Positions 61,963 to 62,115 of a stretch of DNA of 64,000 nt are shown here, in pieces (position 1 is the first letter of the stretch; every line of letters begins with the position of its first letter). This DNA is from a virus (Duplodnaviria > Caudoviricetes): positions 64,001 through 128,000 of IMG/VR virus record IMGVR_UViG_3300037067_016777, one strand, 5' to 3'. A program made the translations under genes and the position numbers. The notes below the pieces were generated by a model. That model searched no databases. It worked only from the letters and a program-made list of their open reading frames with translations, and was not told the origin of the DNA.

Positions 61963-62115
61963 GAGGTCGTCGTAAGTTTTCCCTGATGCTTCAAAGCTAT
62001 TGATGTCCTGTCACGCCTTAGGGAGGTGTTCAATGGTGCAGAAGCACATGTCATCCAAGACCTAACGGTTTTGGCCGTAGTCCTAGTTTCGAACTGCCAA
62101 ACTTACGACGACCTC
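61963..62115 (-). ncRNA. Putative RT-associated structured ncRNA closed by a perfect 17-bp inverted repeat (retron msr-msd-like layout)
   Basis: gaggtcgtcgtaagttt (61963-61979) / aaacttacgacgacctc (62099-62115); internal hairpins; directly upstream of the RT on the same strand. Confidence 0.7.

Follow-up and report, generated by a model that had tools for sequence, protein, structure and literature searches.

The window analysed here, a stretch of 64,000 nt that is part of a 269-kb IMG/VR viral record, holds a reverse transcriptase (RT) gene and, next to its start, a segment of 153 nt that begins and ends in an inverted repeat. The locus raises the question of whether this segment specifies a structured RNA, on which strand it is folded, and what it does for the neighbouring RT. 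The initial annotation had read it as the msr-msd RNA of a retron, folded on the RT strand upstream of ret. Our verdict is that the locus is a phage-borne variant of a widespread module of RT, ncRNA and barrel protein of the DRT class 2 kind. The features of the window are as follows.

58332-60560, - strand: gene for an SMC/Rad50/SbcC-like ATPase, overlapping the RT stop by 8 nt
60553-61914, - strand: RT gene (YADD), likely start ATG at 61914, 453 aa; the open reading frame is 60553-61953
61963-62115, + strand: whole structured ncRNA, 153 nt, on the opposite strand to the RT gene
61963-61979, + strand: 5' arm of the closing stem P1, one half of a perfect 17-bp inverted repeat
61988-62045, + strand: long hairpin, P4 to P6
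61988-61992 / 62041-62045, + strand: P4, 98.7% paired family-wide
61999-62003 / 62030-62034, + strand: P5, 98.0% paired family-wide
62009-62013, + strand: direct-repeat word A, UGUCA, immediately 5' of P6
62014-62017 / 62025-62028, + strand: P6, with the purine-rich apex UUAGGGA
62049-62053, + strand: direct-repeat word A', UGUCA, 40 nt past A and immediately 5' of P3
62055-62074, + strand: P3 hairpin, an 8-bp stem with a UAAC loop (62063-62066)
62085-62095, + strand: P2, small hairpin AGUU/AACU
62099-62115, + strand: 3' arm of P1, followed by a U5 tract (62116-62120) and the small-protein ATG at 62124
62124-62579, 62551-63039 and 63027-63377, + strand: three overlapping small-protein paralogs

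Comparison with relatives supports much of the pairing first drawn for this element. The 17-bp repeat does bound it, and the AGUU/AACU hairpin (P2) and the stems UGCUUC/GAAGCA (P4) and AUUGA/UCAAU (P5) are real and covary in relatives. The apical CC..GG hairpin corresponds to P6, which at 69% paired family-wide is less well supported than the other stems. One proposed hairpin, AGGAC-UACGG-CCAAAA-CCGU-UAG-GUCUU, is not a conserved pairing; all relatives have instead the 8-bp P3 with its 4-nt loop, which reads GUUA on the - strand and UAAC on the + strand and whose stem has many compensatory changes. To define the helices, nine group A copies were anchored on invariant motifs to give fixed-length segments; in group A the small-protein gene is divergent from the RT and its start codon lies 0-50 nt past the RNA. 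These segments define the four main helices P1, P3, P4 and P5, and the weaker apical P6 and the small P2 complete the fold. With these copies read on the + strand, pairing fills 86.5% of cells, and both sides change in 24 of 34 pairs (P4 100%, P3 97% and P5 96% paired), while none of 500 shuffles reached the observed values and all slid controls were paired at 51% or less. Across 31 sequences family-wide, 33 of 34 pairs are compensatory, including 8/8 pairs of P3 and 10/10 of P4 and P5, and P3, P4 and P5 are 97-99% paired; this alignment was fitted to the model and so favours it, though the shuffle and slide controls are still clearly apart. Nearly all group A copies share one P3 loop sequence, and the internal loops AAAGCU and GGUGCA of the long hairpin are conserved. 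P2 covaries within group A (AGUU/AACU, AACC/GGUU, GGUC/GACC, GGCC/GGCC) and aligns poorly family-wide (72% paired).

The strand of the fold is given by the kind of mismatch that the helices contain. When nine relatives are read on the RT (-) strand, their P3-P5 helices contain 144 Watson-Crick pairs, 14 A.C, 1 G.U and 3 other mismatches, and by eye the closing stems add about seven further A.C and no G.U. Functional RNA helices tolerate G.U but not A.C. Because nearly all RT-strand mismatches are A.C and hardly any are G.U, the fold has been selected on the complementary (+) strand; the consensus folding energy (Alifold) is likewise -35.6 kcal/mol on the + strand versus -14.2 kcal/mol on the RT strand. 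The retron reading of the initial annotation is overturned by the comparison with relatives. As a single sequence the + strand has a minimum free energy of -64 kcal/mol (z -7.1), and its MFE fold alone recovers P1, P3, P4 and P5; the - strand, at -57.7 kcal/mol (z -6.1), also folds far better than its shuffles. A covariance model of the + strand version of the RNA (R1) matches the window at 61964-62113, + strand, with 148.5 bits and E 2e-37, and the 269-kb record holds no other copy of the RNA. Searches of Rfam 15 with the window at E<=10 and with six related loci at E<=0.1 gave no relevant family, and literature searches found no description of this RNA family.

Close relatives of the locus were found on viral contigs of 55-364 kb, and a more distant one on a 310-kb contig with T4-type capsid genes. 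The viral relatives, with RTs 43-78% identical, all have a long-range inverted repeat of 11-18 bp beside the RT with a span of 140-160 nt; the closing stems, of 11-21 bp, are unrelated in sequence and lie in the same place. A second architecture, group B (L005, L007, L252 and L253), has the small-protein gene co-directional with the RT and its stop codon abutting the RNA. R1 matches the group B RNAs on the RT-sense strand (E 6e-9 to 6e-6), with no match on the opposite strand of these loci, and in both phage groups, as in L257 and the bacterial loci described below, matches lie within about 100 nt of the RT. Groups A and B have a common plan, consisting of the closing stem, UUUYCC, the long hairpin with its purine-rich apex, the junction AUGYMA, a second hairpin and then a tail. 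Extra group A copies stand before each small-protein paralog in four loci, two in L002, two in L003, three in L006 and two in L251, and a single copy in L257, a T4-like phage contig, is antisense at the RT 3' end (E 3e-8). About 25 bacterial loci have weaker R1 matches (E 1e-6 to ~2), all on the RT strand and immediately beyond the RT 3' end. An exact-motif scan of viral contigs returned four known loci and three chance matches in an unrelated coding region, and among genome contigs an alignment-based scan succeeded where a single-protein scan gave no match.

Several individual loci deserve separate mention. In L247, the closest relative (RT 82% identical), the RT-adjacent copy consists of one closing-stem arm only (941-992), which looks like a clean deletion of about 135 nt. 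We considered whether this was an RNA-less locus and rejected the idea, as a full copy lies at 585-734 before the small-protein gene. The metagenomic relative L249 has a 263-aa open reading frame between RT and RNA, and a tRNA gene (71 bits, 2328-2400) begins inside the last bases of its RT-associated RNA. In L252 the group B RNA and the start of the RT are separated by a strong GC-rich hairpin with a U-rich tail (2457-2495), which suggests that this RNA ends there as a separate transcript. Four Acidobacteriota loci (L087, L090, L097 and L104) share a conserved block about 60-300 nt upstream of the RT that holds a promoter-like pair, TTGACG...TAGAAT, and the DnaA-box-like TTATCCACA.

How the RNA is transcribed was considered from the sequence around it. 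Of 14 group A copies, 10 have a U-tract after the P1 3' arm on the + strand. Near the element only one sigma-70-like site was found, on the - strand (62148->62121). Since the tandem RNA-gene cassettes leave no room for separate promoters, the RNA and the small-protein genes are likely co-transcribed in them. The box TATTGTAGATAA was examined as a promoter and rejected, being by eye a remnant or part of the divergent paralog's N-terminal coding sequence. On the - strand, TTTG (61954-61951) and TATATTTG (61930-61923), which lie 20 nt apart and 8 nt before the RT ATG (window 61923-61954), match the Bacteroidota -33/-7 promoter consensus. The pair is a hint as to the phylum of the host, and it may give the RT a promoter that lies clear of the RNA gene.

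The RT itself was compared with profile collections and solved structures. Its start was placed at ATG 61914 because homologues have 452-460 aa. The protein matches Pfam RVT_1 (5e-23) and, in PADLOC, generic RT (3e-37), UG17 (4e-34, 116 bits), UG26 (4e-29) and Drt9 (7e-27, 92 bits); the RT-Cas1 model also scores far above the retron models, of which RT_II-A reaches 1e-11, and the Drt2 models give only 64-74 bits. The best NCBIfam match is the group II RT/maturase TIGR04416, nearly full length at 131 bits against a cutoff of 300, whereas the retron St85 model NF038233 gives 6e-16 (58.6 bits, cutoff 235). Searched against solved structures, the RT family profile finds group II intron RTs at about 1e-32 (4e-32), RT-Cas1 at 3e-30, PDB 9ioa at 2e-23 over nearly full length, G2L4 at 6e-22 and retron RTs at 1e-6 to 1e-12. 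Retron RTs carry the motifs NAxxH and VTG. Neither is present in the window RT, and among 40 family members each turns up only once. Bacterial relatives match UG26 best in PADLOC, with 125-136 bits over almost the whole model. The RT is not of the retron type, as retron models score about 1e-11 to 1e-16 and UG17, generic RT and group II intron RT models about 1e-34 to 1e-38. A group II intron was also rejected, with the RT below the TIGR04416 cutoff and group II intron RNA models giving no match to window positions 61000-63000 at E<=10. From the profile scores we conclude that the RT forms a distinct clade situated between group II intron RTs and the class 2 UG RTs (UG17/UG26/DRT9) and near to both; we are not confident of its membership of any characterised DRT group.

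On its other side the RT gene overlaps the ATPase gene, which was tried as a partner and rejected: it occurs only in the four closest relatives, and in L002 another gene intervenes before the RT. It is probably a phage recombination gene outside the RT module. No other neighbour has a Pfam or PADLOC match. The constant protein partner is instead the small protein encoded beside the RNA. In the window the first paralog has its start codon 8 nt beyond the RNA end, and a family HMM finds a small protein beside the RNA in every phage-clade locus with enough flank, the match in L257 being weak. Members of this phage family are about 115-205 aa long, and relatives have one to three paralogs, each usually with its own RNA copy before it. 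Two of the paralogs in the window (62124-63377) have differing Cys/His-rich inserts between the conserved motifs RDF(Y/F)xP and RKFxKILT.

The predicted structure of the phage partner is a small beta-barrel (pLDDT 82). Foldseek found no match for it in the PDB at E<=0.001, and its structural neighbours are 3bdu_A (Z 6.7), Hfq (Z 5.2-5.7, rmsd about 2 A over some 52 residues) and WYL domains (Z 4.3-4.7). In the bacterial loci RT and then RNA are followed by a protein that joins a zinc ribbon to a five-stranded barrel, a family found in 123 loci. The model of this barrel has 3bdu_A as top neighbour (Z 5.8), followed by Hfq and ssDNA-bound WYL proteins; the fold matches of both partner proteins are below Z 8 and thus modest. 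Homology between the phage and bacterial partners was rejected, with a profile comparison probability of 0.7%, and we claim for the predicted structures only a common fold class and the same top structural neighbour. RT, RNA and small beta-barrel protein make up a three-part module, with an Sm/Hfq/WYL-like barrel predicted in the jumbo phages. Taken together, the alignments and searches show that the RNA forms a family with defined helices on a defined strand, and that it is linked both to the RT and to the partner protein.

A further feature of the RNA is a short direct repeat. In phage copies two words lie 39-43 nt apart, one just 5' of P6 and the other just 5' of P3, in the form UGNNA in the window. 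The two are identical within each RNA and vary among RNAs (UGUCA, UGCCA, UGUA, UGCA, UGUUA), and RNA copies that serve one RT carry different matched words, three of them in L006. The mean common word is 3.87 nt within a sequence versus 2.93 nt across sequences, and 0 of 2000 permutations reached the within-sequence value. Bacterial members have two words that match only partly (UGA/GGAA). No complement of the repeat word was found in cis. That the words are identical and not complementary to one another suggests that each could pair with one common third strand. In DRT2 the nascent cDNA is re-primed between ACA-1 and ACA-2 (PMC11100668), and in DRT10 between A and A' (PMC12632851). With these systems as models we infer that the RNA could template repeated cDNA from 62009-62048, giving tandem repeats of about 40 nt. 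This candidate template falls within the segment 61980-62055 for which a template role had been suggested earlier, and the adjacent RNA probably does contain a template. The segment between the repeats, about 35 nt, is far beyond the tolerance of DRT10, in which a 20-nt B segment yielded no repeats (PMC12632851). The 3' strands of P4 and P5 fall inside it and would need to melt. The two words could alternatively mark pseudo-symmetric loops for two RT monomers, by analogy with the DRT10 ncRNA, which binds two RTs (2:1) on two interchangeable loops (10.64898/2026.06.29.735271). A Neo-like open reading frame in the concatenated unit was also looked for and rejected, as stops occur in 3 of 3 frames on both strands in the window and most relatives; frames stay open through the unit in a minority of relatives only.

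The explanation that we favour, and hold to be somewhat more probable than its alternatives taken together, is that the + strand carries a gene for an ncRNA of about 150 nt that is the partner of this RT clade and of the barrel protein and carries the RT template. Transcription of the RNA would head for the three small-protein paralogs, leaving the RT gene behind, and, by analogy with DRT2, DRT9 and DRT10, the RNA would bind the RT and supply its template. That template would be bounded by the two covarying UGNNA words, which lie 40 nt apart. A nascent cDNA end copied from word A would re-anneal on A' and prime the next round, and the product would be tandem repeats of single-stranded DNA of about 40 nt. 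The barrel protein may then bind or sense the repeat DNA or RNA, and for the phage the role may be exclusion of rival phages, counter-defence or something else.

Alternatives that retain the strand or the chemistry of the initial annotation fare worst. As a retron, the - strand would be an msr-msd with the 17-bp repeat as a1/a2, a 2'-OH priming G at 62097-62098 and a hairpin copied to msDNA. The terminal inverted repeat and the position by the RT start do resemble retron geometry, and a GG follows the - strand 5' arm in most group A copies. Yet the RT is not retron-type and is without NAxxH and VTG, the - strand helices tolerate A.C and not G.U, and the second hairpin is not conserved; opposite the supposed priming G, the true RNA strand has the CC of a GCCA motif. 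Because the conserved fold is opposite to the RT strand, the RNA cannot be an msr-msd co-transcribed upstream of ret, and its homologues stand downstream of the RT, flanked by a small-protein gene and the RT, or antisense to the RT at its 3' end, positions that no retron layout permits. What endures of that proposal is a structured RNA with a long terminal stem, functionally tied to the adjacent RT; its mechanism and strand do not, and we regard a retron as extremely improbable. Scarcely more credible is a fold that acts as single-stranded DNA, either as cDNA of a - strand transcript or as a strand-specific replication signal. The - strand A.C bias would be equally expected from folded complementary DNA, in which G.T is tolerated. 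However, in group B and in bacteria the homologous RNAs have their fold on the RT-sense strand, within operons, which fits one RNA gene with changed orientation, and the cDNA reading needs opposite rules in different clades.

Two other explanations accept the + strand RNA and dispense with the ~40-nt template. One, which we think unlikely, makes it a cis-regulatory leader or attenuator of the small-protein genes, a stem with a U-tract terminator that is maybe bound by the Sm-like protein and has no template role. It would suit the RNA end 8 nt before ATG 62124 with U5 after it, the Hfq-like fold of the partner, and the repeated cassettes of L002, L003, L006 and L251, with one or two RNA copies before each paralog. 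A leader is harder to reconcile with group B, where the RNA comes after the small-protein gene and before the RT, with bacteria, where the RT stands on one side of it and what seems a different protein family on the other, and with L257 and L249, where the RNA points into the RT gene and is followed by a tRNA, respectively. The RT is the only constant neighbour family-wide, and the covarying direct repeat has no obvious attenuator role. Also doubtful, to a similar degree, is a scaffold that binds the RT as in DRT9 and DRT10, with the template a short loop elsewhere and a short repeat or homopolymer as product; an example would be the segment after P3, UAGU-CC-UAGU at 62078-62087 (CGUUU-rich in relatives), and the UGNNA words would then mark two pseudo-symmetric RT-binding loops. 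The DRT10 template lies just 3' of a boundary hairpin, and two RTs bind two interchangeable loops there (PMC12632851; 10.64898/2026.06.29.735271). In our family CGUUU is conserved after P3, short A-B-A' patterns are readable by eye in many copies, and each UGNNA word stands immediately 5' of a hairpin (P6, P3). Against a scaffold, short repeats are common by chance, and recognition by a single RT cannot explain different matched words beside one RT.

Beyond the templating ncRNA that we prefer, a bolder reading can be offered tentatively, as one that is possible and on balance doubtful. It would be a DRT2/DRT10-like, telomerase-style module of jumbo phages, in which one RT uses one or several RNAs to make different ssDNAs of about 40 nt that are read by barrel proteins for phage competition or counter-defence, with the same core widespread in soil bacteria. 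If so, the RNAs in the jumbo-phage module would be divergently encoded, each with its own matched re-priming words, the barrel readers would be Sm/WYL-like, and the bacterial core would be RT, RNA and zinc-ribbon barrel protein. The template idea predicts tandem repeats of about 40 nt that depend on the RT and join at UGUCA, and the differing matched words among RNA copies of one RT constitute a natural experiment on template programming. The RNA family, the RT clade and the partner protein were found in none of the catalogues and literature searched, and the family ranges over many soil bacteria as well as jumbo phages. The asymmetry of A.C and G.U mismatches exposed a wrong-strand reading of an RT-adjacent RNA and may correct similar calls elsewhere. 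Each of the RT-plus-ncRNA immune systems DRT2, DRT9 and DRT10 showed a new way to make DNA, and a link between DRT10 and the origin of telomerase has been drawn.

Among known systems, the retron msr-msd is alike in having a terminal inverted repeat around a structured RNA beside an RT gene, and differs in RT clade, strand, gene order and conserved pairings. The class 2 UG/Abi group UG26 likewise has a standalone class 2 RT and is the best PADLOC match of the bacterial relatives; however, scores are modest and the window RT prefers UG17. The occasional partner reported for UG26 is a YcjD-like endonuclease (PMC9226505) and not a zinc-ribbon/barrel protein. DRT9, whose UG28 RT makes protein-primed poly-dA, shares with the window a class 2 RT of similar size and an ncRNA with a large central stem, and the U-rich CGUUUU tract of group B and bacterial RNAs is a further likeness. 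In contrast, the window RNA is without a single-stranded U-tract, its RT gives 92 bits on Drt9 and a partner protein is always present. In DRT2 (UG2 RT) identical short words also flank a structured template tens of nt long (PMC11100668). There the template stem must melt, and the product is concatenated cDNA made in rolling-circle fashion (PMC11100668). The DRT2 unit is 120 nt compared with about 40 nt, it contains the neo open reading frame whereas no Neo-like frame exists in the window, and the window module has a separate partner protein.

DRT10 consists of a UG17 RT, an ncRNA and a SLATT effector, and its gene order varies by subtype, RT-gap-effector included (PMC12632851; 10.64898/2026.04.29.721553; 10.64898/2026.06.29.735271). 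Differences from the window are that the window RT has only 116 bits on UG17, second to generic RT, with relatives preferring UG26; that the window partner is a predicted soluble small barrel and not a 2-TM SLATT protein; that the repeat period is 7-9 nt in DRT10 versus about 40 nt; and that the window RNA gene is opposite to the RT, with several RNA-partner cassettes per RT in phage copies. The likeness, which for the ncRNA is one of layout, the DRT10 RNA family not being in Rfam, lies in a three-part module with an ncRNA of about 140-150 nt, whose gene immediately precedes that of the effector and whose two ends pair (SL1) around several stem-loops, and in a short repeated word, which resets the template in DRT10 and would do so here. 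The closing stem of the window RNA resembles DRT10 SL1 as much as retron a1/a2, so an a1/a2-like repeat is not diagnostic of a retron.
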